NCBI GenBank assembly: GCA_964544115.1
Contig: CAZJBP010000001.1
Coordinates: 1-60,705 of the forward strand
Direction of reading: 5' to 3'
Origin: an uncultured Victivallales bacterium
GTDB lineage: Bacteria > Verrucomicrobiota > Kiritimatiellia > UBA8416 > JADHWI01
DNA: 60,705 nucleotides
Shown here: piece by piece, positions 12,149 through 60,705 of the stretch
Layout: each line of letters opens with the position of its first letter
How positions within the stretch are numbered: the first letter of the stretch is position 1
Position numbers and translations under genes: made by a program
The notes under the pieces: generated by a model
What the model was told of the DNA's origin: nothing
What the model saw: only the letters and a program-made list of their open reading frames with translations
The model's database searches: none

Positions 12149-13200
12149 TGAAGGCCCTTGCAGCGCTGCTGATCCTGGTCGCCGTTCTGCGTGCGGGCGC
12201 TGCCGATGCTCCTCCCGCGCCCGAGGCCGCTGGCGCGGGCGATCCCGTGGAACGCGCGGTCGAGCGCGGCCTGGCGTACCTCGCCGGGATTCAGGACAGT
12301 GGCGGGTTCTTCCCCGAGGAGTACGGCCGGACCACCGGGGTCGTCTCCCTCGGGGGCATGGCGTTTCTGGCCAAGGGCTACCTTCCGGGCCGCCCGCCCT
12401 ACGGCGACGTCCTCAACCGCTGCATCGACTACGTCGTCGCCAACCAGATGGAGAACGGCCTGCTGGCCAAGCCCGATCAGCGCATGTACTCGCACGCGAT
12501 CAGCACGCTCTTTCTCTGCGAGGTGTCCGGCATGGTGGACCCCGCCCGGCAGGCGAAGCTGGACGACGTCCTGCCCAAGGCCGTGAAGCTGATCCTGGCC
12601 GCGCAGGCGGTCCCCAAGGGCGACGACCAGCGCGGAGGCTGGCGGTATAGCCCGACCTCCAACGACAGCGACATGTCCTGCACCGGCTGGGCGCTCATGG
12701 CACTGCGATCGGCGCGGCTCAACGGCGCGCCCGTGCCGGACAAGGCCATCGAGGATGCCGTGACGTACATCCTCAACCACGGTGACCCCGCCCAGGGCAC
12801 CTTCGGCTACCAGGACCGGTCGAGCCACGCCACGGAGCTCACCGGTGCCGGCCTCCTCTGCCTGGAGCTGACCGGCCATCACGGTGAGGACATCACGTTG
12901 AAAGCCGGTGACTTCATTCTCAACAACTATGAGAAGCTGCCCGGGCAGGACTACGTCTCGTACGGCAACTATTATAACGCCCAGGGCATGTTCCAGCTCG
13001 GCGGCAAGTATTGGGCAAAGTACTCCGAGTGGATGTACGCCACCTGGCTGCCGAAGCAGCGGGAGGACGGCTCCTGGCCGCCGACCAACATCGGCGTGGC
13101 CTATGAAACCGCCATGATGCTCCTCGCCATGACCGTGCCCTACCGTCAGCTGCCGATCTACCAGCGCGACGAGACGGTCGACGACGCAGCCGGACGGTGA
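12145..13200 (+). CDS. Secreted prenyltransferase/squalene-oxidase-repeat (terpene-cyclase fold) protein
   Basis: ATG at 12145 overlaps the upstream TGA. Signal peptide MMKALAALLILVAVLRAGAA. Repeated QW-like motifs: IQDSGGFF, QMENGLL, QRGGWRYSP, DMSCTGWALMALRSA, KQREDGSWPP. Confidence 0.75.
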   Translation: MMKALAALLILVAVLRAGAADAPPAPEAAGAGDPVERAVERGLAYLAGIQDSGGFFPEEYGRTTGVVSLGGMAFLAKGYLPGRPPYGDVLNRCIDYVVANQMENGLLAKPDQRMYSHAISTLFLCEVSGMVDPARQAKLDDVLPKAVKLILAAQAVPKGDDQRGGWRYSPTSNDSDMSCTGWALMALRSARLNGAPVPDKAIEDAVTYILNHGDPAQGTFGYQDRSSHATELTGAGLLCLELTGHHGEDITLKAGDFILNNYEKLPGQDYVSYGNYYNAQGMFQLGGKYWAKYSEWMYATWLPKQREDGSWPPTNIGVAYETAMMLLAMTVPYRQLPIYQRDETVDDAAGR

Positions 13201-13371
13201 GGCCGCGACCGCGGCTCGACGCCTCCACATCACCGTCTACAAGGGACCTCCTACAGGGGTCTTGCACGGCATTCACAACGAGTTTATCCTCCGCCCTGAA
13301 GTCGGGCATACGAAGTTGTTCCTCGCGCCGCTCATGAGGACTGAACGTTCGAAAGAGGAAGGCGATAGTGT

Positions 13372-14946
13372 ATGAAGGGGATGCGGTTCTGGCGTTTTGC
13401 GGTGCTGCTGTGCGCGGGTTTGGCGTGCGGTGCGAGTGCGGGGGATCTGGCGATTGCCTCGTTCAACGGCGCAGGGCGTTTGACGTTCGAGGCGTTGAAC
13501 AACGGAACCAATTACACGTACCGCGTGGAATGGGCGTCATCGCCGGCCGGGCCGTGGACGAATTTTGCGGGTGCGGCCGCTGTGCTGGATGCTGTCGAAG
13601 CTCCCGGAGGGAAGACCGTGACCTGCTCGGTTCCGATGTGCTACCGCGTGGTTGCCTCGGTTTTGGCCGCCGCTCCGGCGGCAACGACAGACAGCGCGAC
13701 GTCTCTGGCGGGCACCTCAGCCACACTCAACGGCACCGGCACTCCCGGCGGAACCGCGGCAGGTGGCTGGTTCCGCTACTCCACCGTCAGTCCCGGCACG
13801 GGCAACGACACCTTCGGCACGCGGGTGCCGACCAGCGGCGCCACTGCGCTGGGCTCCGGGACGTCCCCGGTGGCCTACTCGCGCGGGATCGCCGGACTGT
13901 CTGCGGGGACGGCCTACTACTACTGCGCCATCGTCTCCAACTCCATGGGGGTGGCGTTCGGTACGGTGCAGTCCTTCACGGCCCCACTGCCGCCTGCGGC
14001 GACGACGACGGCCGCAACGTCGCTCGCCGGCACCTCGGCCACGCTCAACGGCACCTGCAATCCCGGTGGAGCCGCAACGACCGGCTGGTTCCGCTACTCC
14101 ACGGTCCATCCCGGAGCGGCCAATGACAGCTTCGGCACGCGGGCGCCGGCCAGCAGCGGCACGGCGCTGGGCTCGGGGTCATCTCCGGTGGCCTACTCTC
14201 AGGGGATCAGCGGGCTGATCGCCGGGACGACCTACTACTATTGCGCCATCGCCGAGAATGCCGAGGGGCTCTCGTTCGGGAGCATCCTGTCCCTCACCAC
14301 GAGCGCAACCGCCCCGGCGGCAACGACAGACAGCGCGACGTCTCTGGCGGGCACCTCGGCCACGCTCAACGGCACCGGCACTCCCGGCGGAGCCTCCACG
14401 ACCGGCTGGTTCCGCTACTCCACCGTCAGTCCCGGCACGGGCAACGACACCTTCGGCACGCGGGTGCCGACCAGCGGCGCCACTGCGCTGGGCTCCGGGA
14501 CGTCCCCGGTGGCCTACTCGCGCGGGATCGCCGGACTGTCTGCGGGGACGGCCTACTACTACTGCGCCATCGTCTCCAACTCCATGGGGGTGGCGTTCGG
14601 TACGGTGCAGTCCTTCACGGCCCCACTGCCGCCTGCGGCGACGACGACGGCCGCAACGTCGCTCGCCGGCACCTCGGCCACGCTCAACGGCACCTGCAAT
14701 CCCGGTGGAGCCGCAACGACCGGCTGGTTCCGCTACTCCACGGTCCATCCCGGAGCGGCCAATGACAGCTTCGGCACGCGGGCGCCGGCCAGCAGCGGCA
14801 CGGCGCTGGGCTCGGGGTCATCTCCGGTGGCCTACTCTCAGGGGATCAGCGGGCTGATCGCGGGAACGACCTACTACTACTGCGCCATCGCCCAGAATGC
14901 CGAGGGGTTGGCGTTCGGCACCGTGCTGTCCTTCACCACCCCATGA
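13372..14946 (+). CDS. Secreted protein with four ~105-aa Ig/Fn3-like modules (A-B-A-B)
   Basis: Signal peptide MKGMRFWRFAVLLCAGLACGASA. Each module reads ATS LAGTSATLNGT..PGG..T.GWFRYSTV.PG..ND.FGTR...GTALGSG.SPVAYS.GI.GL.AGT.YYYCAI..N..G..FG...SFT. Confidence 0.8.
   Translation: MKGMRFWRFAVLLCAGLACGASAGDLAIASFNGAGRLTFEALNNGTNYTYRVEWASSPAGPWTNFAGAAAVLDAVEAPGGKTVTCSVPMCYRVVASVLAAAPAATTDSATSLAGTSATLNGTGTPGGTAAGGWFRYSTVSPGTGNDTFGTRVPTSGATALGSGTSPVAYSRGIAGLSAGTAYYYCAIVSNSMGVAFGTVQSFTAPLPPAATTTAATSLAGTSATLNGTCNPGGAATTGWFRYSTVHPGAANDSFGTRAPASSGTALGSGSSPVAYSQGISGLIAGTTYYYCAIAENAEGLSFGSILSLTTSATAPAATTDSATSLAGTSATLNGTGTPGGASTTGWFRYSTVSPGTGNDTFGTRVPTSGATALGSGTSPVAYSRGIAGLSAGTAYYYCAIVSNSMGVAFGTVQSFTAPLPPAATTTAATSLAGTSATLNGTCNPGGAATTGWFRYSTVHPGAANDSFGTRAPASSGTALGSGSSPVAYSQGISGLIAGTTYYYCAIAQNAEGLAFGTVLSFTTP
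13682..14940 (+). repeat. Tandem direct duplication, period 639 bp (213 codons), inside the repeat-protein gene
   Basis: CAACGACAGACAGCGCGACGTCTCTGGCGG starts at 13682 and again at 14321. About 13768-14221 looks base-for-base identical to 14407-14860 by eye; differences cluster at the unit edges. Confidence 0.9.
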
Positions 14947-15187
14947 CGCTGACAAGACCCCAACCGGCCGTCGTCGATTCCGATGGCGCCAGCGTACGGT
15001 GACCTCCCTCGCTGCGTTCGGGATGCCCCGGACAGCGGTTTGTGCGGCTCTGGATTCCCGACCACGGCTCCCGGCCGTGACCGCCTCATGCCGTCGCCGA
15101 ACGCAGTGAGACATCCCCCCCCCGGGGGGGCGATCGTTCCGGAGAACGCTGTTGCCATAAGGCACACACGGTGATACCCTCGCATGG

Positions 15188-15475
15188 ATGGATGTTTACC
15201 GGTGTGACCTGGAGAAGAACGAGAAGCTGAAGGCTGAGCGTGGCATCAGCTTTGAGCAGGTTGTGATGCACATCGAGCGGGCGGATATTCTTGACGTGTA
15301 TGAGCATCCCAACCAGAAGAAGCATCCTGGTCAACAGATCTTGGTCGTGCGGATCGAAGAATATGCCTACCTTGTGCCGTTCATAGAGTCGAGCGAGGGA
15401 CGCTTCCTTAAGACAATCATCCCGAGCCGCAGGGCGACACGGCAGTACTTGGAGGAGGAACATGAAAACGATTAA
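15188..15475 (+). CDS. BrnT-like (DUF497) toxin
   Basis: DLEKNEKLKAERGISFEQVV resembles the BrnT N-terminal W/FD..K...N..KHG.SFE.A motif. 95 aa; overlaps its partner by 14 nt; about 50% GC versus about 68% in the flanks. Confidence 0.65.
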   Translation: MDVYRCDLEKNEKLKAERGISFEQVVMHIERADILDVYEHPNQKKHPGQQILVVRIEEYAYLVPFIESSEGRFLKTIIPSRRATRQYLEEEHEND

Positions 15476-15755
15476 AATCGACAGAGAGGAACAGGGGATT
15501 CTTGATTCCGTTGCAAGGGGCGAATGGAGATCCGTCAAGAATCTCAAGAGTGAGATCAAGCGGCATCAGCAATATGCCAGGAATACCCTCAAGAAGGATC
15601 GAAGGGTAAACATCCGAGTGTCGTCCAAGGATCTTGAAGAGCTCCAGGCGATCGCCGTGGCAGACGGGATTCCTTATCAGACCCTGATGTCCAGCGTTCT
15701 TCACCGTTTTGTCGGCGGACGACTCGTGGACAGCAAAGCAGTCCGTGCAAGGTGA
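15462..15755 (+). CDS. BrnA-like CopG/RHH antitoxin
   Basis: C-terminal RRVNIRVSSKDLEELQAIAVADGIPYQTLMSSVLHRFVGGRL matches the RHH antitoxins partnered with DUF497 toxins. Confidence 0.65.
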   Translation: MKTIKIDREEQGILDSVARGEWRSVKNLKSEIKRHQQYARNTLKKDRRVNIRVSSKDLEELQAIAVADGIPYQTLMSSVLHRFVGGRLVDSKAVRAR

Positions 15756-16014
15756 GTCACCTGGCGGCACCTTTGGCCCGAGGCCTTTGACAGATCCCTC
15801 GCTGCGCTCGAGATGACCCAGACGGCGGCGCGGGCGTTGCTGGCTTCGCGGGCAGGGCTCCCTGCCGCATGGCGCTTCACTCCACCCGCGCGCGTTCACT
15901 CGACAAGGACAGAGGCGATACCCTATGGTGCGCCCCGGGATGCAGGAGGTGCCGGGCGGGCCGCGGGGCGGGCCACGGCGTGTGTGGGATGGCGGGGCGG
16001 GCAATCACTCTCAT

Positions 16015-17226
16015 ATGACCCAGAACAGACTCGAACGCACTGAGAATTTCCTGGTCTCGCTCATCCGGCGACCCTCGCTGGACGCGCGCCTTTTTCCCCG
16101 CCGCGTCCAGTTCCTTCTGTGGTGGCTCAAGCAGTTGTCCCGGCTCTACGGAGGCGTGGTGCAGCTGCGGCTGTTCCTCTACCGCAAGGGCATCTTCCGC
16201 CACCACGCGCTCGGATGCCAGGTCATCAGCGTCGGTAACCTGACCGTGGGCGGCACGGGCAAGACGCCGGTCGTGGAGGTGTTCGCGCGGGAGCTGGCCA
16301 AGGTCGGCAGGAAGGCCGCCATTCTGAGCCGCGGCTACAAGAAGCAGGAGGCGCGCCCGCTCCGTCGCCTCGCCAACTGGCTGCTCCTGCGTGAAGTTGC
16401 GCGCCCGCCGCGGGTGGTCTCGGACGGACGGCAGCTGCTCCTGGATTCGGCCATGAGCGGCGATGAGCCGTACATGCTCGCGGCCAACCTGCCGGACGTA
16501 GCCGTGCTGGTGGACAAGAACCGCGTCAAGAGCGGCCGCTACGCCATCAACCGCCTGGGGTGCGACACCCTGATCCTCGACGACGGCTTCCAGTACCTCT
16601 CCCTCCGGCACCGGGTCGAGATCGTGCTGGTCGACTGCACCAACCCCTTCGGCAACGGCCATGTCCTGCCCCGCGGCATCCTGCGCGAGCCAGTCCGCAA
16701 CCTGGCGAAGGCGGACTTCATCTTCCTGACCAAGTCCAACGGCCACGGCACCGAAGACCTGCGGGCCCAGATCAGGGCGCTGAACTCCCGCGCGGAAATC
16801 ATCGAGTGCCGGCACTGCCCGCGCTACCTGGAGAACGCGTTCACGGGGCAGCAGCTGCCGCTCGAGGCGCTGGGCGGCATGAAGGCGGTGGTGATGTCCG
16901 GGATCGCCGTGCCGGAAGGGTTTGAAAGCGAACTGCGCGCGCGCGGCGTGAACCCGCTGGAGACCTACCGCTTCGCCGACCACCACCGCTATTCCCAGCA
17001 GGAGCTTATCGACGTCGTCAACGTCGCGGCGCGCCTCGGCGCAGACGCCGTGCTGACCACCGAGAAGGACGCCGTGCGATTCCCGAAGCTCGACCGCTGC
17101 GACGTGCCCGTCTGGTTCCTCCGCGTGGATATCGAAATCCTCAGCGGCCACGAGGACTTTCACCACTGCATCGAGCGCATCTGCTTCTTCAATGAGCCCG
17201 AACCGTCAGGAACGCATGCACGCTGA
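16015..17226 (+). CDS. lpxK: Tetraacyldisaccharide 4'-kinase
   Basis: [20 protein letters not shown]-loop typical of LpxK, and ILSRGYK. In-frame ATG at 16015 chosen; the upstream extension is Arg/Gly-rich. Confidence 0.9.
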
Positions 17227-38666: not shown

Positions 38667-39004
38667 TGGCCCCGTACTGCCCGAAGCGGGGAGACGTGGT
38701 CTGGATGTCGTTCCATCCGCAGGCTGGACATGAGCAGGCCGGCCGCCGGCCTGCGCTCGTTCTCTCGCCTGAGCCGTACAACCGCAAGGTGGGGTTGGCG
38801 CTCCTTTGCCCCATCACCAATCAGGTCAAGGGCTACCCGTTCGAGGTCGTCGTGCCAGATGGTCTCAAGGCGGCCGGCGCCGTTCTGTCTGATCAGGTGA
38901 AGAGCATGGATTGGAAGGCACGCGGGGCAGCGTTCCTCTGTTCCCTTCCGGAATCCACGGTGCAGCAGGTGCTGAACAAGGTCGGCACGCTGCTGGATGC
39001 GTGA
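38660..39004 (+). CDS. mazF: MazF/PemK endoribonuclease toxin
   Basis: PKRGDVVWMSFHPQAGHEQAGRRPALVLSP...LALLCPITNQVKGYPFEV is the canonical MazF core; overlaps mazE. Confidence 0.85.
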   Translation: MVMAPYCPKRGDVVWMSFHPQAGHEQAGRRPALVLSPEPYNRKVGLALLCPITNQVKGYPFEVVVPDGLKAAGAVLSDQVKSMDWKARGAAFLCSLPESTVQQVLNKVGTLLDA

Positions 39005-39146
39005 ACAGCGGGGATAGGGACAGGCAAAGGACCCCAAACCAGTTTGTGCTTGCGTTGGAAGGCCGGGCGTAGGATAGGCAGCCGGTCGGGCGGCGCGGCG
39101 GGCGCGCGGCCCCTCAGCACGAACACCGAACAACGAGCGGCACAGC

Positions 39147-40031
39147 ATGAGTGCGAAGATCATCGACGGCAAAGAGGTCGCGGCTCAGATCCGCGAGGAA
39201 CTCAAGGCGGACATCCAGCGGCTCAAGGCGCGCGGCGTGACGCCGGGGCTGGGGGTGATCCTCGTCGGCGACGATCCGGCTTCGCGGTCGTACGTCACCG
39301 CCAAGGAGACGGCCTGCCACGAGATTGGCATCTATTCGGACGACAACCGCCTTCCCGCCACCGCGTCGCAGGAGGACCTGCTGGCGAAGGTCCGGCAGAT
39401 GAACGCGGACCCGCGCATCCACGGCATCCTCGTCCAGCTGCCGCTGCCGAAGCACATCAACGAGAGCGCGGTGATCGCGGCGATTGCCCCGGAGAAGGAC
39501 GTCGACGGCTTCACCCCGATCAACGTCGGGCGCATGGTGATCGGGGAGCGGTGCTTCCTGCCGTGCACGCCGCACGGCGTGGTCCAGCTGCTGGCGCGTA
39601 GCGGCGTGAAGATCGACGGCGCGCACGTGGTGGTCGTCGGACGCAGCAACATCGTCGGCAAGCCCGTGGCCAACATGCTGCTGCAGAAGCGGCCCAACGC
39701 CAATGCCACGGTGACCCTCTGCCACACCGGCACGCGCGACGTGGGGTCCTTCACGCGGCAGGCCGACATCCTGATCGTGGCGGCCGGCCGCCCCAACACC
39801 CTGACGGCGGACATGGTGAAGCCCGGCGCGGCGGTCATCGACGTGGGTGTCAACCGCGTGCCGGACGCCTCGAAGAAGCAGGGCTTCCGGCTCGTCGGCG
39901 ACGTGGATTTCGAGGGCGTCAAGGAGGTGGCCTCGCTGATCACGCCCGTGCCGGGCGGCGTGGGGCCGATGACGATCACGATGCTGATGTACAACACCGT
40001 CGAATCCGCGCGACTGCACGCGGGGGGCTAG
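39147..40031 (+). CDS. folD: Bifunctional methylenetetrahydrofolate dehydrogenase/cyclohydrolase
   Basis: [72 protein letters not shown]. Confidence 0.95.
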
Positions 40032-47757: not shown

Positions 47758-49866
47758 TCAGCGTGCGGCCTCGCCTGGCGCGGCCTCGCCCGTGGTCCGG
47801 TGGCCGAATTTATGGGGCAGGAACAGAAACCGCCAGTAACGCTCCTTGTCGTCTCGGTAGTATTCCAGCAGCCGGTAGATCACGTTGACGTGCCGCCGTT
47901 CGCCGCCCTGCACATCCACCAGCGGCTGAAACGTGAACTGGTAGCGCCGGTCATCGCGCGCCCACCGAATCAGTCCCAGCAGGATCTTCGTCTCCCGCTC
48001 GCCATCGGGCGATTTCGTGGACCATGACAGCAGCGGCGGCAGGATTGTCCTGCCGCCGGAGTGGAGGTACAGAGGGATGACATTGAAGTAGTTGTCGCCC
48101 CACCAGACGGGCCCAGCCCCCTTGTGGCCTTTCCAGTCCCACGCAGGCGGGAGCAGCAGGATCCAGTTGTCATCCTTGCTCCAATAGACGGGGAAGACGT
48201 CGAGGTAGTTGTCGCCCCACCAGACGTTGAGAACACCGTGGTTGTCACTCCAGTTCCAGGCCGGCGGCAGGAGCAGGATCCAGTCGTCCCCGGAGCTCCA
48301 GTAGATCGGGAAGACGTCAAAGTAGTTGTCACCCCACCAGACGGGGCCAACGCCGTGGTTGCCATTCCAGTTCCACGCCGGCGGCAGGAGCAGGAGCCAG
48401 TCGTCGCCCGAGCTCCAGTAGAGCGGGAACACGTCGAGATAGTTGTCGCCCCACCAGACCGGGCCAACGCCGTAGTTGCCGTCCCAGTTCCAGGCCGGCG
48501 GCAGGAGCAGCAGCCAGTCGTCGCCGGAGCTCCAGTAGACGGGGAAAACGTGGAGATAGTCCTCGCCCCACCAGACGGGGCCTGCGCCGTGGTTGCCGTT
48601 CCAGTTCCACGCCGGCGGCAGGAGCAGGAGCCAGTCGTCGCCATAGCCCCAGTAGACGGGAAAGACGTCGAAGTAGTTCTCGCCCCACCAGACCGGGCCG
48701 ATGCCGCGGTTGCCGTGCCAGTTCCAAGTCAGGGGGATCAGCAGCCAGGTGTCATCGGTGCTCCAATAGAAGGGGAAGACATCGAAGTAGTTCTCGCTCC
48801 ACCAGACCGGGCCGATGCCATGGTGGTCTTCGACATCCCACGCCACGGGCAGCAGCAGCCAGTTGTCGTCCCACCCCCAGAACAGGGGAAACACATCGAA
48901 GTAGTTCTCGCCCCACCAGACGGGGCCAACCCCCTTGTCGCCACCCCAGTTCCACATGGGAGGGACGATCAGGAGCCAGTCATCGTTCTGGCTCCAGTAC
49001 AGCGGAAAGACATCCAGATAGTCTTCGCCCCACCAGACGGGGCCGACGCCGCGGTTGCCGTCCCAGTCCCACGCCAGCGGCAGCAGCAGCCAGTTGTCGC
49101 CGCGGCTGAAATAGAACGGGAAGACATCGACGTAGTCCTCGCCCCACCAGACGTTGAGAACGCCGTAATTCCCTTCCCAGTTCCACGCCGGCGGCAGGAG
49201 CAGAAGCCAGTCGTCGCCGGAGCTCCAGTAGACGGGGAAGACGTCGAGATAGTTGTCACCCCACCAGACGGGGCCAACGCCGTGGTTGCCGTTCCAGTTC
49301 CACGCCGGCGGCACAAGCAGGAGCCAGTCGTCTCCATAGCCCCAATAGACGGGAAAGACGTCAAAGTAGTTCTCACCCCACCAGACCGGACCGGCGCCGT
49401 GGTTGCCGTTCCAGTTCCAGGCCAGCGGAGGCACGATCCAGTTCTGGCCCTCGAACCAGACCAGCGGGGCGAAAATGAAGTAGTCCTCCCCCCACCAGAC
49501 GTTCAGGAATCCGCGGTTGCCGTTCAGATTCCAGGCCGGGGGCAGGATCAGCAGCCAGTCGTCTTCCCACGTCCAGACCAGGGGGGCCACGTGGAAGTAG
49601 TCGTTGCCCCAGATGACAGGCCCGACGTAGCGATCGAATTCATCGACCCGCTCGTGGCTGCCGATCAGCCAGAAGCACGCCATCATCTCCCGCTCGTCTT
49701 CGCTCACGGAAGTGGAATAGAAGGGCGCCCACTTGATGCCCTCCTCATAGACTTCGGCCCGTGCCGCACCTGGCGTCAGCACGAACAGGGCGACCGCCAC
49801 GGCAACGGTACGCGCGGCAACACCTCGCAGGGATCCTCTCACGACTGCACCCCCTCCCTGCAGCAC
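47758..49866 (-). CDS. Secreted Trp-rich protein with 14 tandem ~39-aa repeats of unknown family
   Basis: Signal-like N-terminus VAVAVALFVLTPGAARA. Repeat consensus G.GPVWWGENYFDVFPVYWSSGDDWLLLLPPAWNWNGNH counted 14 times. Distinct ~75-aa C-terminal tail. Confidence 0.75.
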   Translation of the reverse strand: MLQGGGAVVRGSLRGVAARTVAVAVALFVLTPGAARAEVYEEGIKWAPFYSTSVSEDEREMMACFWLIGSHERVDEFDRYVGPVIWGNDYFHVAPLVWTWEDDWLLILPPAWNLNGNRGFLNVWWGEDYFIFAPLVWFEGQNWIVPPLAWNWNGNHGAGPVWWGENYFDVFPVYWGYGDDWLLLVPPAWNWNGNHGVGPVWWGDNYLDVFPVYWSSGDDWLLLLPPAWNWEGNYGVLNVWWGEDYVDVFPFYFSRGDNWLLLPLAWDWDGNRGVGPVWWGEDYLDVFPLYWSQNDDWLLIVPPMWNWGGDKGVGPVWWGENYFDVFPLFWGWDDNWLLLPVAWDVEDHHGIGPVWWSENYFDVFPFYWSTDDTWLLIPLTWNWHGNRGIGPVWWGENYFDVFPVYWGYGDDWLLLLPPAWNWNGNHGAGPVWWGEDYLHVFPVYWSSGDDWLLLLPPAWNWDGNYGVGPVWWGDNYLDVFPLYWSSGDDWLLLLPPAWNWNGNHGVGPVWWGDNYFDVFPIYWSSGDDWILLLPPAWNWSDNHGVLNVWWGDNYLDVFPVYWSKDDNWILLLPPAWDWKGHKGAGPVWWGDNYFNVIPLYLHSGGRTILPPLLSWSTKSPDGERETKILLGLIRWARDDRRYQFTFQPLVDVQGGERRHVNVIYRLLEYYRDDKERYWRFLFLPHKFGHRTTGEAAPGEAAR
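47985..49626 (-). repeat. Intragenic ~117-bp tandem repeat array (14 units)
   Basis: Periodicity is visible at both DNA and protein level. Units 3 and 9 are almost identical in protein (GAGPVWWGENYFDVFPVYWGYGDDWLLL.PPAWNWNGNHG). Confidence 0.85.
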
Positions 49867-51835: not shown

Positions 51836-52039
51836 GACGCGTCTGGCCTCCCGGTGGACCGGCGAGAGAATAAGGGGACGCAGCGCCCGTGTCACGCCGG
51901 GGTTGCGAGGAAGTAACGGGGCCCCTCTTCATCCTAATCTTACTCTTACTCGTAATCCCCCCCCCGCTCACGCCGCCCGCCTCCCCTCCCGCGGGTTGCG
52001 GGGACAGGTTCGCGGTTCCGGTTCGCAGTTCTCTCGTAC

Positions 52040-52135
52040 CTTCCCTTCGGCGTCGGGGTCGGAATCGCTATCGGTATCGACGTCGGGTGGCCCGCGGGAG
52101 GGCGGTGTGAGGCTGACGGGGGATGCGCCCGCCCC
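52040..52135. repeat. Third, shorter copy of the intergenic repeat family seen at both window ends
   Basis: TTCCCTTCGGCGTCGGGGTCGGAATCGCTATCGGTATCGACGTCGGGTGG aligns with 60545-60595. GACGGGGGATGCGCCC (about 52118-52133) resembles the TIR arm AACGGGGATGCGCCCC. Confidence 0.45.
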
Positions 52136-52600: not shown

Positions 52601-53788
52601 ATGGTCATGCATTACCGGCGGTTCGGACGCACGGAGCTGAAGATGCCCGTGCTCACGTGCGGCGGCATGCGGTACCAGCAGGCGTGGAAGGATGACGATC
52701 CCGCCCTGGAGATCGACCCCGACAATCAGGCCAACCTCGAGGCCACCGTGCGGGCCGCGGTGGCGGCCGGCATCAACCACATCGAGACGGCGCGCGGGTA
52801 CGGCACCAGCGAGATCCAGCTCGGCCGCGTTCTGCCCTCGTTTCCGCGCGCGTCGATCCTCGTACAGACCAAGATCGGCCCGGCCGAGAGCGAGGATGAC
52901 TTCCTGCGCACGTTCGACCAGTGCATGCGCAATCTGCGGCTGGACTACCTGGACCTCCTGGGCATCCACGGCATCAACACCGCCGACGTGCTCGATCTCA
53001 CGCTGCACAAGGGCACGCTGAAGGCCGCGCAGCGGCTGCGCGACGAGGGACGCGTGCGCCACATCGGGTTCTCCACGCACGGCCCGTGCGATGTCATCGT
53101 CGCCGCCATCGAGACCGGCGAGTTCGAGTATGTCAACCTGCACTGGTATTACTTCGATCCGCGCAACAGTCCTGCCATCGACGAGGCCGCCCGCCGGGAC
53201 ATGGGCGTGTTCATCATCAGCCCGTCCGACAAGGGCGGGCGGCTCTACGCCCCGCCGCCGAAGCTGGTCGAACTGTGCCAGCCGTTCACGCCGATGGGCT
53301 TCAACGACCTGTTCTGCCTGTCGCGCCCCGACGTGCACACCCTGAGCATCGGCGCGTCCCGGCCGTCGGATTTCGACGCGCACCTGGCGGTGATGCCCGA
53401 GCTCGACCGCGCGTCCGACGCCATCCGCCACGTGGTCGTGCGGCTGGAGTCCGAGATGCGGCGGGTGCTCGGGGATGCCTGGTGCGACGGCTGGGCTGAG
53501 GCGCTGCCGTCCATGGAGGCGACGCCCGGCGAGGTACCGCTCTACCACGTGCTGCGGCTCTACAACCTGGCGATGGCGTACGACATGGAGGAGTTCGGCC
53601 GCATGCGCTACAACCTTCTCGGCAGCGGCGGCCACTGGTTCCCGGGCAACAAGGTCGACAAGATCGACTGGGCGGCGCTGCGCGAGGGGCTCCGCAACCA
53701 CCCGCTGGCCGACCGCATCGAACAGGCGCTGAAGATCGCCCACGAGCGCTTCAACGCGGCCGATGAGAAGCGCCTCAGCGAGTCGTAG
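52601..53788 (+). CDS. Aldo/keto reductase family oxidoreductase
   Basis: MHYRRFGRTELKMPVLTCGGMRY, GINHIETARGYGTSE, YLDLLGIHG, VRHIGFSTHG. ATG at 52601 after GGAGGAGGGG. Confidence 0.85.
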   Translation: MVMHYRRFGRTELKMPVLTCGGMRYQQAWKDDDPALEIDPDNQANLEATVRAAVAAGINHIETARGYGTSEIQLGRVLPSFPRASILVQTKIGPAESEDDFLRTFDQCMRNLRLDYLDLLGIHGINTADVLDLTLHKGTLKAAQRLRDEGRVRHIGFSTHGPCDVIVAAIETGEFEYVNLHWYYFDPRNSPAIDEAARRDMGVFIISPSDKGGRLYAPPPKLVELCQPFTPMGFNDLFCLSRPDVHTLSIGASRPSDFDAHLAVMPELDRASDAIRHVVVRLESEMRRVLGDAWCDGWAEALPSMEATPGEVPLYHVLRLYNLAMAYDMEEFGRMRYNLLGSGGHWFPGNKVDKIDWAALREGLRNHPLADRIEQALKIAHERFNAADEKRLSES

Positions 53789-53889
53789 CGCCTCCCGGTG
53801 CCGCGCGGGCCGCGAACGCGCCTGGCGGAGGGATGAAGCAGCAGGCTCGTAGCGCCTGCTGTACCGGTACAGCGCGGGCTACGAACGCG

Positions 53890-53991
53890 CTGAAACGGGA
53901 TGCCGAAGGGCCGTCAGCACTGCGCGGCTCCGCGTTGCTTCCCGCTGTCGCCGTCCCTATGATATGCCCCTCGAGCGCCGCTGACGCGCGC
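53890..53991 (+). repeat. 102-bp direct repeat, copy 1 (carries a sigma70-like promoter at 53935-53963)
   Basis: 99/102 identical to 57538-57639 (mismatches counted by eye: 3). TTGCTT, 17-bp spacer, TATGAT. Confidence 0.85.
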
Positions 53992-54070
53992 CGTTTCTAT
54001 CCGGTGCCGGGACAGGGGTGCCGGGACAGGCGGGACAGGTGACAGGTAAAGGGTCCTTCGGAAGATCAAG

Positions 54071-56041
54071 GTGAGAGTGCGCTCAATAAGTCGCCTTGTG
54101 ATAGGCTGCCTCGTCCTGGGGTTGAGTGCGCTTTCGGGAAGAGCGCAGGAAGATCCGGCACTGTTCCGCATTGGCAAGGGGAACTTGCTCGGGTTTATCG
54201 ATCGCGACGGTCGAACGCTCGTCGTGCCCAAGTACCAGTACGTGGACACCGCCTGGTGGGAGGGGTGTTTGTGGGTCCGGGAATCGTTTCCCTTGTGGTG
54301 GCAGGGCTTGGAGACGAACGCACCCTCCGGCAACTTCATCGGCCCTGACGGGGTGACCATATCCGCGCGGCCGCTCTCAGAGCTCGATTGTTTCCGCGAG
54401 CCCATGTTCAGGAGCGGCATCGCGTTGGTGCGGCTCTCGATGAACGATTGTGCTTACATTGACAAAGCCGGGCGCATTTTATTCCACGCGCCTCCTTGGT
54501 GTGTGGGGGTTCCTGATGATGCAGGACCGTGGGTAATGGTTGAAGACGGCAAGTTCGGTTACGCCACGCGATCAGGCAAGGTCGTGGTCCCAGCGACGTT
54601 CGACGAGTGCGGCAGCTTCACCTATGGGTTTGCGCCCGTCCGGCGGGGTTCCGAATGGGGCATCATCGACTCAGACGGGAAATGGGTATTGGAGCCCTCA
54701 TATAGTGAGATCAGGAGGGTCGAGAGCGGTCACACGTTGTTGAAGTATCGGTCGGGTATACGTTGGGGAATGCTTCGCAACGACGGCAAGGTTCTTACCG
54801 CCGCGAAGTTCGATCAGGTGGGTCACGGAGGCTATGGGGTGGTCACCGTGCGGATCGGCGACAAGTGGGGTCTGGTGACCGATGGAGGCTGTACTGTTCT
54901 GGACCCCCAGTTTGAGGGGGTGGGTACTGTGACTCCGTACGTAGTGGCGGTGTCAAAAAGCAATCTCTGGGGGCTTGTGAGCCTAGACGGGACTGTTGTC
55001 CAAGAGCCGGCGTTCAGCTCGCTGTCGATCCGTGAGGCTGGTGGGCCGTGCGTCGGTCGCATGCCTCTGGCCGGCTGTGGCGTTCTGCTTGATGAGCGTG
55101 GAAGAAGGATCACCGCGCCGGCGGCGGATGATTTCCATCTGGTGGGCAACGACAGAGCTTTCTTCAGGCAGGGCGAAAAGTGGGGGCTCATGGCGACAGC
55201 GGGAGAAGTGCTGATCGAAGCGACCTACGACGATGTTGGAGGCTTCGAGAAACACGGCTTGTTTGGTGTCGCACGCAGGCGCATGCGGGGTCTGGTTGAT
55301 ATAGTGACAGGTCGCGAAGTGTTGCCGACGACGCATGAACGCGTTGTGAGTTGGCACGAGGTAGTGCGGTGCATTGACGGCGGCACGAATTCGTTCTACA
55401 CGCGGTCTGGGTCCGTGTTGGTATCTGAAGAGGCGGGGATCACGAATGTGACAGACGCATGGCTTATGTACGATGGGTATGGCGTCATAGAGGGGAAGAC
55501 AGGGGCGGGTGTCATCTCGAAGGATGGACGCATCGTGCTGCCGATGAGGTACGAGAGAGCGGGTTTCCCCTCCGAGGATCTTGTGCCGGTTCAAGTTGGG
55601 GGGAAGTGGGGGTATGTCGATCTGCGAGGCCGTCCGGTAGTAATGCCCCGCTTTGCGGATGCGGGGAGCTTTTCCGAAGGCGTGGCGTTTGTGCGGGTCG
55701 ACGACGCGTATGGATTCATTGATCACCGAGGGGAGTTTGTAATCGCACCGAAGTACGCGGCCGCTGGTTACAGCCTGAACGGTTTGCTTCCGGTCGCCGT
55801 GCGCCGCGAAGGTGGAACGGATGCGGTATGGGGGGTGGCAGCACTCAAGTGGGGGTTGATTGACCGACAGGGAAACACCGTGCTGCCCGTCGAATATGAA
55901 GTTTTGGAATGGGGGTCGAGATCGGCGAAGAAGAAGCGGCCTTACGGGAGAATGGTTAGTCGCGAATGTTCGCGCTGGGCGGATCTGGATACCGAAGGCG
56001 GCCGGTTCCTCGTCCCTTGGATTCAGGGCGCAGTGAAGTAG
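54071..56041 (+). CDS. WG-repeat (KWG-type) secreted protein
   Basis: GTG start, signal peptide RLVIGCLVLGLSALSGRAQ. More than 10 repeats of the type KFGYATRSGKVVVPATFDECGSFTYGFAPVRRGSEWGIIDSDGKWVLEPSY. GC is visibly lower than in the flanks. Confidence 0.8.
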   Translation: MRVRSISRLVIGCLVLGLSALSGRAQEDPALFRIGKGNLLGFIDRDGRTLVVPKYQYVDTAWWEGCLWVRESFPLWWQGLETNAPSGNFIGPDGVTISARPLSELDCFREPMFRSGIALVRLSMNDCAYIDKAGRILFHAPPWCVGVPDDAGPWVMVEDGKFGYATRSGKVVVPATFDECGSFTYGFAPVRRGSEWGIIDSDGKWVLEPSYSEIRRVESGHTLLKYRSGIRWGMLRNDGKVLTAAKFDQVGHGGYGVVTVRIGDKWGLVTDGGCTVLDPQFEGVGTVTPYVVAVSKSNLWGLVSLDGTVVQEPAFSSLSIREAGGPCVGRMPLAGCGVLLDERGRRITAPAADDFHLVGNDRAFFRQGEKWGLMATAGEVLIEATYDDVGGFEKHGLFGVARRRMRGLVDIVTGREVLPTTHERVVSWHEVVRCIDGGTNSFYTRSGSVLVSEEAGITNVTDAWLMYDGYGVIEGKTGAGVISKDGRIVLPMRYERAGFPSEDLVPVQVGGKWGYVDLRGRPVVMPRFADAGSFSEGVAFVRVDDAYGFIDHRGEFVIAPKYAAAGYSLNGLLPVAVRREGGTDAVWGVAALKWGLIDRQGNTVLPVEYEVLEWGSRSAKKKRPYGRMVSRECSRWADLDTEGGRFLVPWIQGAVK

Positions 56042-56069
56042 TGGGATCCCCTGCGTCAGAAAAGCACTC

Positions 56070-56203
56070 GGACAAGTGACGGACGAGTACTGACGGCACA
56101 CTGGGGAGCACACTGACCACACTGGGGACAGGTAAACTGTCGGAGATAGACAGACAAGTGACAGGTAAAGTCACCGGACAAGCGGACAAGTGACAGGTAA
56201 AGT
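56070..56203 (+). repeat. Array of short direct repeats with a GACAGGTAAA(G) core
   Basis: GACAAGTGACAGGTAAAGT perfect at 56153-56171 and 56185-56203. GACAGGTAAA also at 56127-56136. CACACTGGGGA occurs twice (56097-56107, 56118-56128). Related GGGACAGG x3 plus GACAGGTAAAG at 54004-54051. Confidence 0.7.
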
Positions 56204-56392
56204 ATCCTCCACCGGGGTGTAGGGTGGGCGAATCTGGCAGGGCGGGGCGCCGGGGCGTCAGTGTTTGTGAAGGGCGTCTGAGGTGGGTGTGACGGCGTTC
56301 TGAGTGGCACACGGAGCGCGAACGGCGGAAGCCGGGCACGCGCCGGCTGTTGGGTTGCCGGTCGGTGCCGTGAGCCAGCTTGCTGGCGGCGC

Positions 56393-57349
56393 TCAGACGA
56401 TCTGGCGCAACTGCCTGAAGCTGTAGATCTCGGGCCGTGAGCCGGCGGGATCCGGCGCCAGGGCTCGGGTGAGGCGTCGCCTGGCTATGGCCGCCTCGCC
56501 ACGGGCCTTGGCCAGAACGTTCTTCACGAAGAGGTCCGAGCCGATGACCAGGCCGTCAACCCAGTAGCGCACGCGGCGATCCGCGCGGATTGCAAAGGGC
56601 TGCTTCTCGGCGGCCTTCAGGGCGACGGCCTCTACGGTCTGCGGGGACGCGCCGGCCTCCACTGCCGTCTCGACAGCGATGGCGCGGCGCAGGGCTGACA
56701 GAAGGCTGTCCATGTCCTTGGCCCCAAGGCCCTCGGGCAGTGTCGGCAGCACGTGCGAAACGACGGGCTCTTCCCACGGATGCCGGCCAGCGGCCGACCA
56801 CTCGGCCAGGGTGCAGAACCGGTAGTCGGCGGGGTTTCTGACGATGCCTGCGCGTACCGGGTTGAGTTCCAGATACTTCCAGCAGTGCCAAACGGACAGA
56901 CCGCCTTCGAGGATGGTGTTTTTGAACCGCTCCTGCCAGAGGTGTCCCCGGCGGCGCACAGGACGTGTGCGGTTGAACCAGCGGGTGAACTGCTGCTGGA
57001 GGTCCTTCATGAAGCGGCTGACATCGCGCAGTTGCCCGGGCAGAGCCGCGGCCCGTTCAGTACCCACGCGCACCGTCTTCTTGCCGTCGTAGAAGGCATT
57101 GAATCGCGCCACCGCCTCCGCCTCCGGAAGCCCCTTGCCAGGGATGAACGTCAGCAGATGGAAGTGGTTGCCCATGACCTGGTAGGCGACAACCTCCACC
57201 GTGTACAGCCGCAAGAGCTTACGCATGATACAGACGAAGCACTCCTTCTCTGCCGGTCCGAAGGGGAACTCCCCCACGTGCCCACCGATCCGATTATAAA
57301 GGTGCATGAACGTGTCCACTTCCGACGGCTTGATCCTGGCCTGACGCAT
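56393..57349 (-). mobile_element. REP-associated tyrosine transposase-like (IS200/IS605 Y1 HUH superfamily) gene
   Basis: HUH motif VMGNHFHLL. RGHLWQERFKNTILE...YLELNPVRAGIVRNPADYRF (catalytic Tyr in the YxxxNP context). 318 aa with a non-catalytic C-terminal extension. Confidence 0.8.
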
Positions 57350-57417
57350 GGTTTCCTCCCCGGTGAGTGACTCGCCCCCTCCACACCTACCAAAGCAACT
57401 GCCGCGTCCGAATTCCG

Positions 57418-57532
57418 GTCGAAGGTGGACTACTAACCTGTCCCTATCGGCCGCCCGGTCGAAGGTGGACTACTAACCTGTCCCTATCGGCTTCGGCTAG
57501 TCGAAGGTGGACTACTAACCTGTCCCTATCGG
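57418..57532 (+). repeat. Three perfect 33-bp direct repeats GTCGAAGGTGGACTACTAACCTGTCCCTATCGG separated by 7 and 9 bp
   Basis: Copies at 57418-57450, 57458-57490 and 57500-57532, immediately upstream of the RAYT-like gene. Contains the reverse complement of GGGACAGGT. Confidence 0.9.
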
Positions 57533-57537
57533 GGCCC

Positions 57538-57639
57538 CTGAAACGGGATGCCGAAGGGCCGTTAGCATTGCGCGGCTCCGCGTTGCTTCCCGCTGTCGCC
57601 GTCCCTATGATATGCCCCTCGCGCGCCGCTGACGCGCGC
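57538..57639 (+). repeat. 102-bp direct repeat, copy 2
   Basis: See 53890-53991. Ends 10 nt before the asnS ATG (GGAGG RBS in between). Confidence 0.85.
57583..57611 (+). promoter_or_regulatory. Putative sigma70-type promoter of asnS
   Basis: TTGCTT (57583-57588), 17-bp spacer, TATGAT (57606-57611), 39 nt upstream of the ATG at 57650. Confidence 0.45.
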
Positions 57640-57649
57640 TGGAGGCGAC

Positions 57650-59155
57650 ATGAGCGATTCGATAGACACGACCGTTGACCGTCTGGCCGAACACGCGGGA
57701 CAGGCCGTCCGTTTGCGCGGCTGGGTGTACGGCCTGCGGCGCAGCGGCAAGGTGGCGTTTCTGGAATTGCGCGACGGCACGGGCATCTGCCAGTGCATCG
57801 TCGAGGCGTCTGCGCCGGAGGCGTTCGAGGCCGCCGGCCGACTGACCCAGGAGTCCTCGCTGGCGCTGACCGGCACCGTGCGCCCCGAACCGCGCGCCCC
57901 GGGGGGCTATGAGATTGCGGTGGTGACGCTGGAGCCCGTGCACATCGCTGAGGATTACCCCATCACCCGCAAGGCCCACGGGTGGGACTTCCTCTTCTCC
58001 CATCGCCACCTGTGGTTCCGGTCGCGCCGCCCGACCGCCATCCTCCGTATTCGCCACACGCTGATCCGCGCCTGCCGCGAGTTCTTCGACAACCGCGGCT
58101 TCACGCTGGTGGACACGCCGATCCTCGTGCCCGGAGCCGGCGAAGATACGCAGACGCTCTTCCCGGTGACCTACTTCGACCGGCAGGCCTACCTGGCGCA
58201 GACGGGCCAGCTCTACCTGGAGTCGGCCTGCATGGCGCTGGGAAAGGTGTACTGCTTCGGACCGACGTTCCGCGCCGAGAAGTCCAAGACGCGCCGCCAC
58301 CTGACCGAGTTCTGGATGATCGAGCCGGAAATCGCCTTCGCCGACCTGGACGACGTGATCGCCCTGGCCGAGGATTTCATGGTCCATCTTGTCGAGCGGG
58401 TCCTGGCCGCGAACACGGCGGATCTCGAGTCCCTCGGCCGCGACGTCGAGGCGCTGCGCCTCATCCGCAAGCCGTTCCCGAGGATGACGTACGATCAGGC
58501 GGTCGAGAACCTGCGCAGCGAGGCCACGCGCCAGAGGATGGAGGCGCGCCTGGAGCAGGCGCGGGCCGAACTGGCGGCGCGGCGCGCGGAGCAGGGCGCG
58601 CTGACGCTGGAGCTGGAGTCGGCCAAACAGGCCTGGAAGCAGGACAAGGCCCGGCTGGCCCTGCAGGAAACGGCGGACGCGATCACGGACCTGGAGCGCG
58701 AGGTGGAATATGCCCCCGAGCACATCCGGCTGGCGCAGGCGTTCGAGTGGGGCGGCGACCTCGGCGGCAGCGACGAATCGGTGCTGTCGCGGCAGTTCGA
58801 CCGCCCTCTGTTTGTGACCGACTATCCCGCCGAGGCCAAGGCGTTCTACATGAAGCGCCATCCGCACGACCCGCGGCGGGTCCGCAACATGGACCTGCTG
58901 GCGCCGGAGGGCTACGGCGAGATCATCGGCGGCAGCCAGCGCGAAGACGATATCGAGACTCTGCGCCGCAGCACGCAGGAGAAGGGGCTGCGCCCCGAGG
59001 ACTACGACTGGTACTTTGACCTGCGCCGCTTCGGCTCGGTCCCGCACGGCGGCTTTGGGCTGGGCATCGAGCGGACGCTGACGTGGATCTGCGGCCTCAA
59101 GCACGTCCGCGAAACCATCCCGTTCCCCCGCACGATGGGGAAGATGGTTTTGTGA
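57650..59155 (+). CDS. asnS: Asparagine--tRNA ligase with a ~65-75-aa coiled-coil insertion
   Basis: FRAEKSKTRRHLTEFWMIEPEIAF (AsnRS motif 2 context), GGSQRE, RRFGSVPHGGFGLGIERTLTWICGLKHVRETIPFPR (motif 3). Confidence 0.85.
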   Translation: MSDSIDTTVDRLAEHAGQAVRLRGWVYGLRRSGKVAFLELRDGTGICQCIVEASAPEAFEAAGRLTQESSLALTGTVRPEPRAPGGYEIAVVTLEPVHIAEDYPITRKAHGWDFLFSHRHLWFRSRRPTAILRIRHTLIRACREFFDNRGFTLVDTPILVPGAGEDTQTLFPVTYFDRQAYLAQTGQLYLESACMALGKVYCFGPTFRAEKSKTRRHLTEFWMIEPEIAFADLDDVIALAEDFMVHLVERVLAANTADLESLGRDVEALRLIRKPFPRMTYDQAVENLRSEATRQRMEARLEQARAELAARRAEQGALTLELESAKQAWKQDKARLALQETADAITDLEREVEYAPEHIRLAQAFEWGGDLGGSDESVLSRQFDRPLFVTDYPAEAKAFYMKRHPHDPRRVRNMDLLAPEGYGEIIGGSQREDDIETLRRSTQEKGLRPEDYDWYFDLRRFGSVPHGGFGLGIERTLTWICGLKHVRETIPFPRTMGKMVL

Positions 59156-60404: not shown

Positions 60405-60705
60405 CACAAGCATGGCGCACGCCCGCAGCGGAGTCGAGTCCGCGATGGGCTGGCTGTCGGCAGCGGGCGCATCCGCGATTCAGTTCAAGCCGGTTGGGGT
60501 GTTGCCAGGCCTGCCGTCGTCGTGGTTGGCGGCCTCGCGCGCATTCCTTTCGGCGTGGGGGTCGGGATCGCTATCGGTATCGAACTCGGGCGGCCGGCGG
60601 TGGGTGGCTCGGTCTTGATGCTGCCGGGGGATGTGTCGCGGATCGGGTCGAAACACGGGCGCGTGATATCGGCCCGTCTGCCGCGTTGCCTTCGGGGGGC
60701 GCAGA
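60405..60705. repeat. Inverted homologue of the element at 1-385, truncated by the window end
   Basis: Reverse complement of about 95-260 aligns with about 60528-60695, e.g. CTGCCGGGGGATGTGTCGCGG.TCGGGTCGAAAC.CGGGC and TTCGGCGT.GGGGTCGG.ATCG.TATCGGTATCGA.CTCGGGCGGCCGG. TIR-arm homologue GGGCGCATCCGCGATTCAGTTCA at 60466-60488. Confidence 0.6.

Follow-up and report, generated by a model that had tools for sequence, protein, structure and literature searches.

The locus at positions 56,070 to 57,532 of a 60,705-nt stretch of DNA from an uncultured Victivallales bacterium (assembly GCA_964544115.1, contig CAZJBP010000001.1; the whole stretch is called the window below) raises the question of which kind of element is formed by a transposase-like gene lying between two arrays of short, oppositely oriented repeats with a GACAGG core. 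An earlier note on this DNA had proposed a RAYT-like HUH transposase paired with an unusual REP (repetitive extragenic palindromic) sequence. We propose, with a probability of about 0.7, that the locus is a TIRtron, that is, a RAYT-like Y1/HUH gene of the TIRYT type bounded by short terminal inverted repeats (TIRs) with a (G)GGGACAG core. RAYT-like genes with TIRs that are not REPs were described and named TIRYT/TIRtron by Di Nocera, De Gregorio and Rocco (2013; BMC Genomics 14:522, PMC3733652); the present feature matches this published kind, now from a clade of PVC (Planctomycetes-Verrucomicrobia-Chlamydiae) bacteria, and not a classical REP/RAYT pair. The protein and its TIRs were assigned to TIRtrons because of the protein class, the family-wide TIR architecture, the multiplication of gene and ends as a unit, the lack of hairpins and the low copy number.

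The TIRYT gene (56393..57349, minus strand) encodes a 318-aa Y1/HUH tyrosine transposase of the RAYT-like type. The protein matches the Pfam family Y1_Tnp with 28.6 bits and the NCBIfam family REP_Tyr_transpos with 56 bits, the latter under the 80-bit cutoff, and its sole sequence match in the PDB is 4er8, the Escherichia coli TnpA-REP protein (E 0.064). An AlphaFold (AF2) model, calculated from an alignment of 20 sequences (mean pLDDT 78.5, pTM 0.78), had 4er8 as its top fold match (E 6.7e-7, TM 0.71 on the target), the IS200, ISDra2 and IS608 transposases ranking below it. The HUH motif is formed by H62 and H64 (GNHFH) and the catalytic tyrosine is Y159 (WKYLELNPVRAG). In the 20-member alignment, composed of homologues with 45-58% identity, N61-H62-x-H64, W138, Y159, E161, N163, R166 and A167 are invariant, and so is the C-terminal block DRRVRYWVDGLVIGS. 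The motifs read NHFH, LWQERF and YLELNP in the window protein, and NHFH, LWA/G/Q and YIEMNP in the family consensus. About 70 residues of extra helices are predicted by the model between the strands 62-69 and 143-147, and residues 240-318 form a low-confidence C-terminal tail, for which a fold search gave no match and no helix-turn-helix (HTH) fold; likewise, none of the 20 members had a Bac_DnaA_C, HTH_23 or HTH_28 Pfam match at E <= 1. Because of its Y---NP signature, the protein was placed in class 2 (RAYT-like) of the TnpAY1 transposases, IS200 proteins having Y---Q (Quentin et al., 2018, PMC6006769). The identification of the gene made in the earlier note is thus borne out by the Pfam match, the sub-threshold NCBIfam match, the fold match to 4er8 and the intact HUH and tyrosine residues: the 318-aa protein is a Y1/HUH enzyme, closer to RAYT/TnpA-REP than to IS200.

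All the repeat strings quoted in the earlier note, including the copies upstream of the WG gene and after mazF, were found in place. The gene is on the minus strand and its upstream side, called the left end, has the higher coordinates. The left-end TIR array (57415..57533, minus strand) consists of three 37-nt units (57415-57451, 57455-57491 and 57497-57533, spaced by 40 and 42 nt), which read GCCGATAGGGACAGGTTAGTAGTCCACCTTCGACCGG on the gene strand and contain 33-nt cores identical to one another. The TIRYT 5' leader with a putative promoter (57350..57414, minus strand) separates the proximal left-end unit from the ATG; comparison of upstream regions by eye suggested a CGGAATT box in this leader, with CGGAAAT or CCGGAAA in homologues. 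A scan for sigma-70 promoters and terminators gave nothing above shuffles, and no RNA family was matched in an Rfam scan (E <= 1) that covered 53700-57700. The proximal right-end array (56117..56218, plus strand) lies 187-270 nt past the TIRYT stop codon and is inverted relative to the left end. It carries the core GACAGGTAAA three times (56127, 56160 and 56192), and GACAAGTGACAGGTAAAGT at 56153-56171 and 56185-56203, to the left of the gene in the window and hence downstream of it. The gene-proximal right copy (R1) is the closest match to the left unit.

A further array of right-end type (outer array, 54004..54057, plus strand) stands upstream of the WG gene, with GGGACAGG at 54009, 54023 and 54032 followed by GACAGGTAAAGGGTCC, in which GACAGGTAAA starts at 54041. 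It is oriented like the 56117-56218 array and, together with the left-end array at 57415-57533, bounds a whole 3.5-kb segment. A solo TIR-like copy, GATAGGGACAGGCAAAGGACCCC (39013..39035, plus strand), lies between the stop codon of a mazF/pemK-like open reading frame (ORF) and folD; this site, at 39017, is the only outside site that has the 12-mer GATAGGGACAGG in common with the three left-end units. The ORF that ends directly before it (38667-39006) was recognized as a PemK/MazF-like toxin by eye and from the label in the earlier note, and the gene that starts after it, at 39148, resembles folD.

Within the window, GGGACAGG occurs 14 times compared with 3.3 expected, and the degenerate motif GACAGGYWAR 8 times compared with 0.30 expected; none of 100 shuffles reached either count. 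Seven of the eight GACAGGYWAR matches fall in 54041-57524, on the plus strand to the left of the gene and on the minus strand to its right. This strand pattern shows that the inverted arrangement described earlier is real, and the arrangement recurs across the family (below). Outside the locus, no clear enrichment of the 8-mer GGGACAGG was observed in the 60-kb window (6 copies, about 3 expected).

A word-indexed search returned 684 relatives of the protein, mostly of about 317 aa, and an exhaustive profile search at E <= 1e-30 yielded 618 sequences, each representing a 50%-identity cluster and most of them aligned over their full length. Genome scanning gave 80 loci, nearly all in metagenome-assembled genomes (MAGs) of Victivallales/Lentisphaerae, Kiritimatiellae and Verrucomicrobia; individual loci are referred to by L numbers. 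Plasmids searched by tblastn contained core matches only, at 25-32% identity, and no close relative. Nearly all upstream regions carry at least one sense copy of GGGGACAGGCAAA, GGGACAGAGAAA, GGGACACAGAAATA or GGGACATAGA, 100-250 nt before the ATG. When 55 loci were searched without bias for the best inverted match of the 260 nt before the gene to the 450 nt after it, about 40 gave (G)GGGACA... inverted repeats, 9-21 nt long. Where the ORF was intact and the flanks were long enough (43 loci), the GGGACA core was found upstream in 73 sense and 6 antisense copies, and downstream in 8 sense and 49 antisense copies, the downstream inverted copies of homologues lying 200-350 nt beyond the stop codon. 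Of these 43 loci, 18 have at least two copies arrayed at the left end and 14 have them at the right end; the triplets at both ends in the window are therefore typical of the family.

The ends vary within the family. A small subclade has another TIR, GGTGCCAGGCACC, in place of the GGGACA core; it was observed that in L015, L023, L039 and L047, all from one Victivallales MAG, and in L065 the TIR is self-complementary (GGTGCCAGGCACC or GGTGCCTGGCACC) and likewise arrayed. The arrays of L017, L025, L030 and L040 are repetitions of a short outer flank together with an end piece of variable length. L089 has one right TIR with a different flank, and a clear TIR was not seen in L088. The contigs of the close homologues P0001 and P0002 are too short to provide context.

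Single-stranded DNA (ssDNA) folds of all units and arrays were no better than those of shuffles (z from -1.4 to +0.9), except for one 5-bp hairpin in the distal right copy; for the left-end unit, z was 0.44 and 0.03, i.e. no hairpin. A GTAG foot is absent from the window units. Copy number in the window organism, which is found in many lake and freshwater metagenomes, was estimated from the depth of Logan contigs in 4-5 lake metagenomes. Logan depth was used since a metagenome collection scanned with the exact left-end 21-mer gave 0 matches; this collection evidently lacks the organism and is uninformative on dispersal. The depth over the arrays at 56029-56302 and 53974-54110 equals the single-copy baseline (1x), and that over 57399-57535 is 2-3x, as expected for the collapse of three tandem copies. 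Two other Logan contigs carry one unit copy each: one, at about 0.4x depth and with a flank resembling the TIRYT leader, is a paralogue or comes from a related strain, and the other, at about 1x depth and with unrelated flanks, represents a solo copy at another genomic site (locus B). In 634 kb of related loci, the core was not enriched at more than 700-900 nt from the genes (183 copies compared with 168 +/- 12); clusters of cores were somewhat commoner than in shuffles (14, shuffle mean 5.3, maximum 12), among them arrays in L044 and inverted pairs in L058.

Copies of the TIRs without the gene exist in several places, namely the solo site at 39017, the depth-matched solo unit of locus B, two MITE-like (miniature inverted-repeat transposable element) inverted pairs in L058, one of which forms a 15-bp stem (z = -4.4) and the other of which is not significant (z = -1.1), and two arrays of 300-700 bp in L044 (8890-9550 and 13190-13560), made of GCCGTGCGTGCCTGTCCCCG-type units, all antisense, on both sides of the TIRYT locus. 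In conclusion, the flanking GACAGG-core repeats are not REPs: they form no hairpins and are low-copy in the window organism. The enrichment elsewhere that a dispersed REP would show was not seen in the 634 kb of related loci, and what the earlier note had called an unusual REP, not an obvious strong palindrome and lacking the GTAG head, is known in the literature as the TIR of a TIRYT/TIRtron, with the motif GGGGWSAS (PMC3733652; PMC6006769).

A palindromic repeat with two hairpins lies just outside the element, at 53839-53892 (CAGCAGGCTCGTAGCGCCTGCTGT... and ACAGCGCGGGCTACGAACGCGCTG; ssDNA z = -3.07), with a partial copy at 53795-53821. The depth over 53837-53973 reaches 10-15x in four lake metagenomes, with many loose ends and variable loop sequences, and is attributed to this repeat, which looks like the real REP-like high-copy repeat of the genome and is unrelated to GACAGG. 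In a single Logan contig (run X6, depth 12, 28-nt side), window position 53893 is joined to 57410; this contig probably represents the solo unit of locus B beside another copy of the hairpin repeat, not a deletion allele.

The Verrucomicrobia MAG HK-STAS-VERR-1 contains at least 7 copies of the gene with its ends, 84-97.5% identical at the DNA level over about 1310 bp, some of them in tandem. The homology of these copies starts at (GATGAAA)GGGACAGGTAATT, about 150 nt before the ATG, and stops at AATTACCTGTCCCC, which two estimates put roughly 190-240 nt beyond the stop codon; it is thus bounded by GGGGACAGGTAATT inverted termini, and the flanks are unrelated. The behaviour here is that of a unit made of gene and repeats, not that of a domesticated single-copy RAYT. 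In L025, a partial copy of 250 nt breaks off after codon ~33; AGGAAACT comes next, and then a complete copy that restarts at GGGGACAGGCAAATAATAGC. Two to four paralogues per genome were found in at least 10 other MAGs; as these are mostly just 65-86% identical, recent multiplication is documented in one lineage only. In the window organism, one TIRYT locus was seen in metagenome contigs. At L036 (9843-12870) and at L019, L029, L040 and L061 (about 13100-16800), which belong to HK-STAS-VERR-1, tandem and partial copies of the element and additional repeats common to the loci were noticed; the latter measure about 200-850 bp and lie downstream of the elements at a distance of 3-6 kb.

The TIRYT locus is part of a larger insertion-like segment. 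In the nearest available relative (AsnRS 85% identical), an aldo-keto reductase (AKR) gene is followed by asnS after a 104-nt spacer, compared with 3.65 kb between these two housekeeping genes in the window. The segment consists of a first 102-nt direct repeat (copy a, 53890..53991, plus strand), which is its left bracket and a duplicate of the asnS upstream region, then the outer array, the WG gene, the inner array, the TIRYT gene and the left-end array, and is bracketed on the right by the second 102-nt repeat (copy b, 57538..57639, plus strand), directly upstream of asnS (ATG at 57650). The two copies are 97% identical, have a Logan depth of about 2x and correspond in position to the asnS upstream region of the relative; a TTGCTT-17-TATGAT box in the repeat fails the criteria of the sigma-70 scan. 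More distant relatives by AsnRS (67-68% identity) have no synteny in common with the window, hence there is one empty site only.

The WG gene (54071..56041, plus strand) encodes a WG_beta_rep repeat protein (Pfam E 7e-63) from an ORF of 656 aa, which is called as 647 aa in metagenome contigs. The WG and TIRYT genes are convergent; the former lies between the two right-end-type arrays and is missing from the AKR-asnS spacer of the nearest relative. The GC content of the WG gene is 59.7% and that of the TIRYT gene 64.9%, compared with 68.2% for the window. The outer array has the orientation of the proximal right-end one, and both the WG and TIRYT genes are therefore enclosed by the outermost inverted pair. 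A convergent gene followed by further antisense TIR copies is also present in L010 (GT2), in L044 (a URO-D-like gene and a 195-aa ORF) and in L030; no proximal right TIR was found in L044 and L030. In view of the enclosing outer array and of this common layout, the WG gene is read as a candidate passenger inside an extended TIRtron.

How closely does the locus follow known members of the class? As in described TIRtrons, a RAYT-like Y1/HUH gene is flanked by terminal inverted repeats devoid of REP hairpins, at similar distances from the coding sequence. Many described TIRs, the majority and not all, carry GGGGWSAS at similar gene distances (PMC3733652); GGGGACAG fits this motif and is exact in the distal right copy (R3, 56124-56131, the sole such copy in the window) and in most homologous loci. 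TIRs are described as single, dimeric or grouped and of moderate abundance (PMC3733652), and the extra copies found here are single, dimeric (L058) or grouped (L044), with a low abundance in the window. The present clade differs from those described in being confined to PVC bacteria (Lentisphaerota, Kiritimatiellota, Verrucomicrobiota), in its proteins of about 317 aa with a conserved tail not recognized by Pfam, in terminal arrays made of stacked, truncated ends, in a genome with at least 7 near-identical units, and in some units that enclose a convergent, putative passenger gene; none of these five features was found in PMC3733652 or PMC6006769.

TIRYTs largely correspond to TnpAY1 subclass 2.1 (Quentin et al., 2018, PMC6006769), which has the motifs NH[VYF]H, W[EQ] and YIELNP or Y[IV]HLNP, a median length of 238 aa and an HTH-like C-terminal domain (Bac_DnaA_C, HTH_23, HTH_28). 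The window protein resembles this subclass by Y---NP, NHFH, LWQERF and YLELNP, by the lack of REP hairpins nearby and by being long with an extra C-terminal domain; it differs by its 318 aa and by a tail without a recognizable HTH domain. Subclass 2.3 proteins have about 325 aa, insertions at beta1:alphaA and beta3:alphaC, the motifs NHYH/WE/YVDLNP and about 4 diverged copies per genome, in Chromatiales and Alteromonadales (PMC6006769). The length of the window protein, the large insertion after its HUH strand and the multi-copy behaviour of its family recall this subclass, whereas the motifs and taxonomy of the present clade do not. Set beside both by motifs, length and published descriptions, the protein appears close to subclass 2.1/2.3. 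Among the groups of RAYTs, group 1, equivalent to subclass 2.1, behaves most like an IS (Bertels et al., 2017, PMC5581495), and no biochemical test of any TIRYT is reported in PMC3733652 or PMC6006769.

The following mechanism can be proposed for the TIRtron. The TIRYT would recognize the GGGACAGG-core ends and would nick and rejoin DNA by means of its HUH/Tyr active site, moving or copying the TIR-bounded segment. HUH/Y1 chemistry is established for TnpA-REP and IS608 TnpA. By analogy with these enzymes, nicks would be made at or near the GGGACAGG-core termini, with formation of a 5'-phosphotyrosine link before strand rejoining. Since single TIRs do not fold, three routes of recognition are proposed: sequence-specific binding to a single strand, binding to duplex DNA, or recognition of a stem that would result from pairing of the left and right TIRs in ssDNA, as in the L058 mini-elements. 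The tandem end copies may be stacked partial duplications of the termini, produced when ends are cleaved and rejoined repeatedly or when re-initiation takes place at a terminus; slippage between G-runs is an alternative origin. Probably the larger segment (54004-57533) acts as the functional unit; its distal right-end array would let the WG gene ride as a passenger, and the segment sits in the AKR-asnS spacer with the 102-nt duplication of the asnS upstream region. We infer each of these steps, i.e. action of the TIRYT on the ends, chemistry, origin of the arrays and passenger mobilization, from the layout of the locus and from related enzymes.

A bolder version, in which the PVC-clade TIRYT elements are autonomous, currently active transposons that move neither by IS200/IS605 peel-and-paste nor by REP/RAYT dispersal but in a mode of their own, is tentative, and we consider it rather doubtful. 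An HUH/Y1 enzyme would then work on non-hairpin inverted termini, possibly through TIR pairing in ssDNA, as in the L058 mini-element with a 15-bp stem; re-initiation at a terminus would leave 3'-truncated stacked copies, such as the window arrays and the L025 250-nt copy; and alternative distal right ends would capture passengers (WG in the window, GT2 in L010, the URO-D-like gene in L044).

Several points weigh against the TIRtron assignment. That the TIRYT would act as a transposase on its own TIRs is argued from analogy with TnpA-REP and IS608. In the window, cores other than that of the distal right copy (AGGGACAG or GTGACAGG) match GGGGWSAS at 7 of 8 positions. Direct repeats, whether short or long, were not detected next to six HK-STAS-VERR-1 copies, and no target-site duplication that would mark their exact termini could be defined. 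The paralogues of other genomes, at mostly 65-86% DNA identity, fit old duplication or domestication as well as ongoing transposition. The structure of the window locus is the same in 4 other metagenome contigs (99.6-99.9% identity), and contigs from five lake-metagenome runs contained no array indel and no excision or circle junction. Finally, no flanking duplication comparable to the 102-nt repeat accompanies the HK-STAS-VERR-1 copies, this duplication being present in the window insertion only, and insertion in the window cannot be distinguished from deletion relative to the 85% relative, since an empty site would arise again if the 102-nt repeats recombined.

Three other explanations were considered. 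In a classical REP/RAYT system (REPtron), a domesticated single-copy RAYT disperses its flanking repeats through intergenic regions as high-copy non-autonomous REP/REPIN elements. The locus resembles the E. coli TnpA-REP system (4er8) by the fold of its protein, the top structural match, by the partial REP_Tyr_transpos match and by cognate repeats that are inverted around the gene and can form arrays; besides, the gene is apparently fixed at one locus in the window organism, a few copies are gene-less (the 39017 solo and locus B), and REPIN-like inverted pairs and large arrays exist in some relatives. However, REPs are GTAG-footed hairpins in hundreds of copies, typically more than 100, and RAYTs are single-copy proteins of about 165 aa, whereas the window repeats are non-palindromic, unfolded (z about 0) and at a depth of 1x (2-3x over the three tandem units), and the protein has twice the length, with an NCBIfam score under the cutoff. 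Moreover, the motif is unenriched away from the genes in related loci, gene and ends are multi-copy together in HK-STAS-VERR-1, with 2-4 paralogues in several genomes, and the high-copy hairpin repeat of the genome (53839-53892) has a different sequence. Of the REP/RAYT pair proposed in the earlier note, the enzyme class and the cognate inverted repeats hold, whereas the class and dynamics of the repeats do not (unfolded, low-copy, and multiplied as a unit with the gene in a relative), which makes this explanation unlikely.

The strict conservation of HUH and tyrosine throughout the family would be needless for a pure DNA binder, and it argues against a domesticated DNA-binding protein or regulator, for which the GGGACAGG arrays would be operators bound by the Y1 protein or another factor, would control TIRYT, WG and asnS, and would grow by slippage, with no transposition. 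Such a role would agree with the promoter-proximal position of the arrays upstream of the TIRYT and WG genes, with the stability of the locus in the population, with the G-runs that units often have in common with their flanks and that favour slippage, and with a conserved C-terminal domain of unknown function. It leaves aside the homology of the HK-STAS-VERR-1 copies that stops at the TIRs, the nested copy in L025 and the empty site in the nearest relative, and an operator role is hard to picture for inverted copies 200-350 nt past the stop codon; we regard it as very unlikely. An ordinary IS200/IS605-type insertion sequence, transposing by single-strand peel-and-paste through subterminal hairpins, would share with the locus the Y1 HUH fold and catalytic residues (Y1_Tnp Pfam match; IS200, IS608 and ISDra2 among the fold matches) and the IS-like multiplication in one genome, but its transposase, as in IS608 and ISDra2 TnpA, has Y---Q and about 150 aa, compared with the class 2 signature Y---NP (Table 1 of PMC6006769) and 318 aa here; its ends are asymmetric subterminal hairpins, compared with inverted repeats without hairpins; there is no tnpB; and TnpA-REP is the top fold match. 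This last explanation is scarcely credible.

Other repeats of the window were observed apart from the TIRtron. An intergenic family with members at 190-278, 52031-52099 and 60514-60600 (about 60-90 nt, 84-89% identity, GGGGTCGGAATCGCTATCGGTATCGA) occurs in both orientations; further pairs lie at 109-174/60617-60682 and at 9-32/303-326, and a perfect 24-nt inverted repeat is present near the start of the window. Long and apparently coding tandem repeats are located at 48028-49623 and 13670-14926 (117-nt units, about 12 copies; units spaced by ~320 nt, 4 copies).

TIRYTs, roughly subclass 2.1 or group 1 of Bertels, are among the largest groups of RAYT-like proteins. For annotation, the TIRtron reading means that COG1943 'RayT' calls in MAGs of Lentisphaerota, Kiritimatiellota and Verrucomicrobiota denote TIR-bounded units and not REP systems, and the end arrays may help to cause the short contigs on which many TIRYT genes occur. 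The PVC clade is unusually clear material for asking if TIRYTs act as transposases, in what way inverted termini devoid of hairpins would serve an HUH enzyme, and if these genes are selfish or domesticated, as it offers a genome with at least 7 near-identical units and sharp boundaries, a nested copy, gene-less mini-elements, an occupied and an empty site in close relatives, and terminal arrays that resemble the footprints of a reaction.

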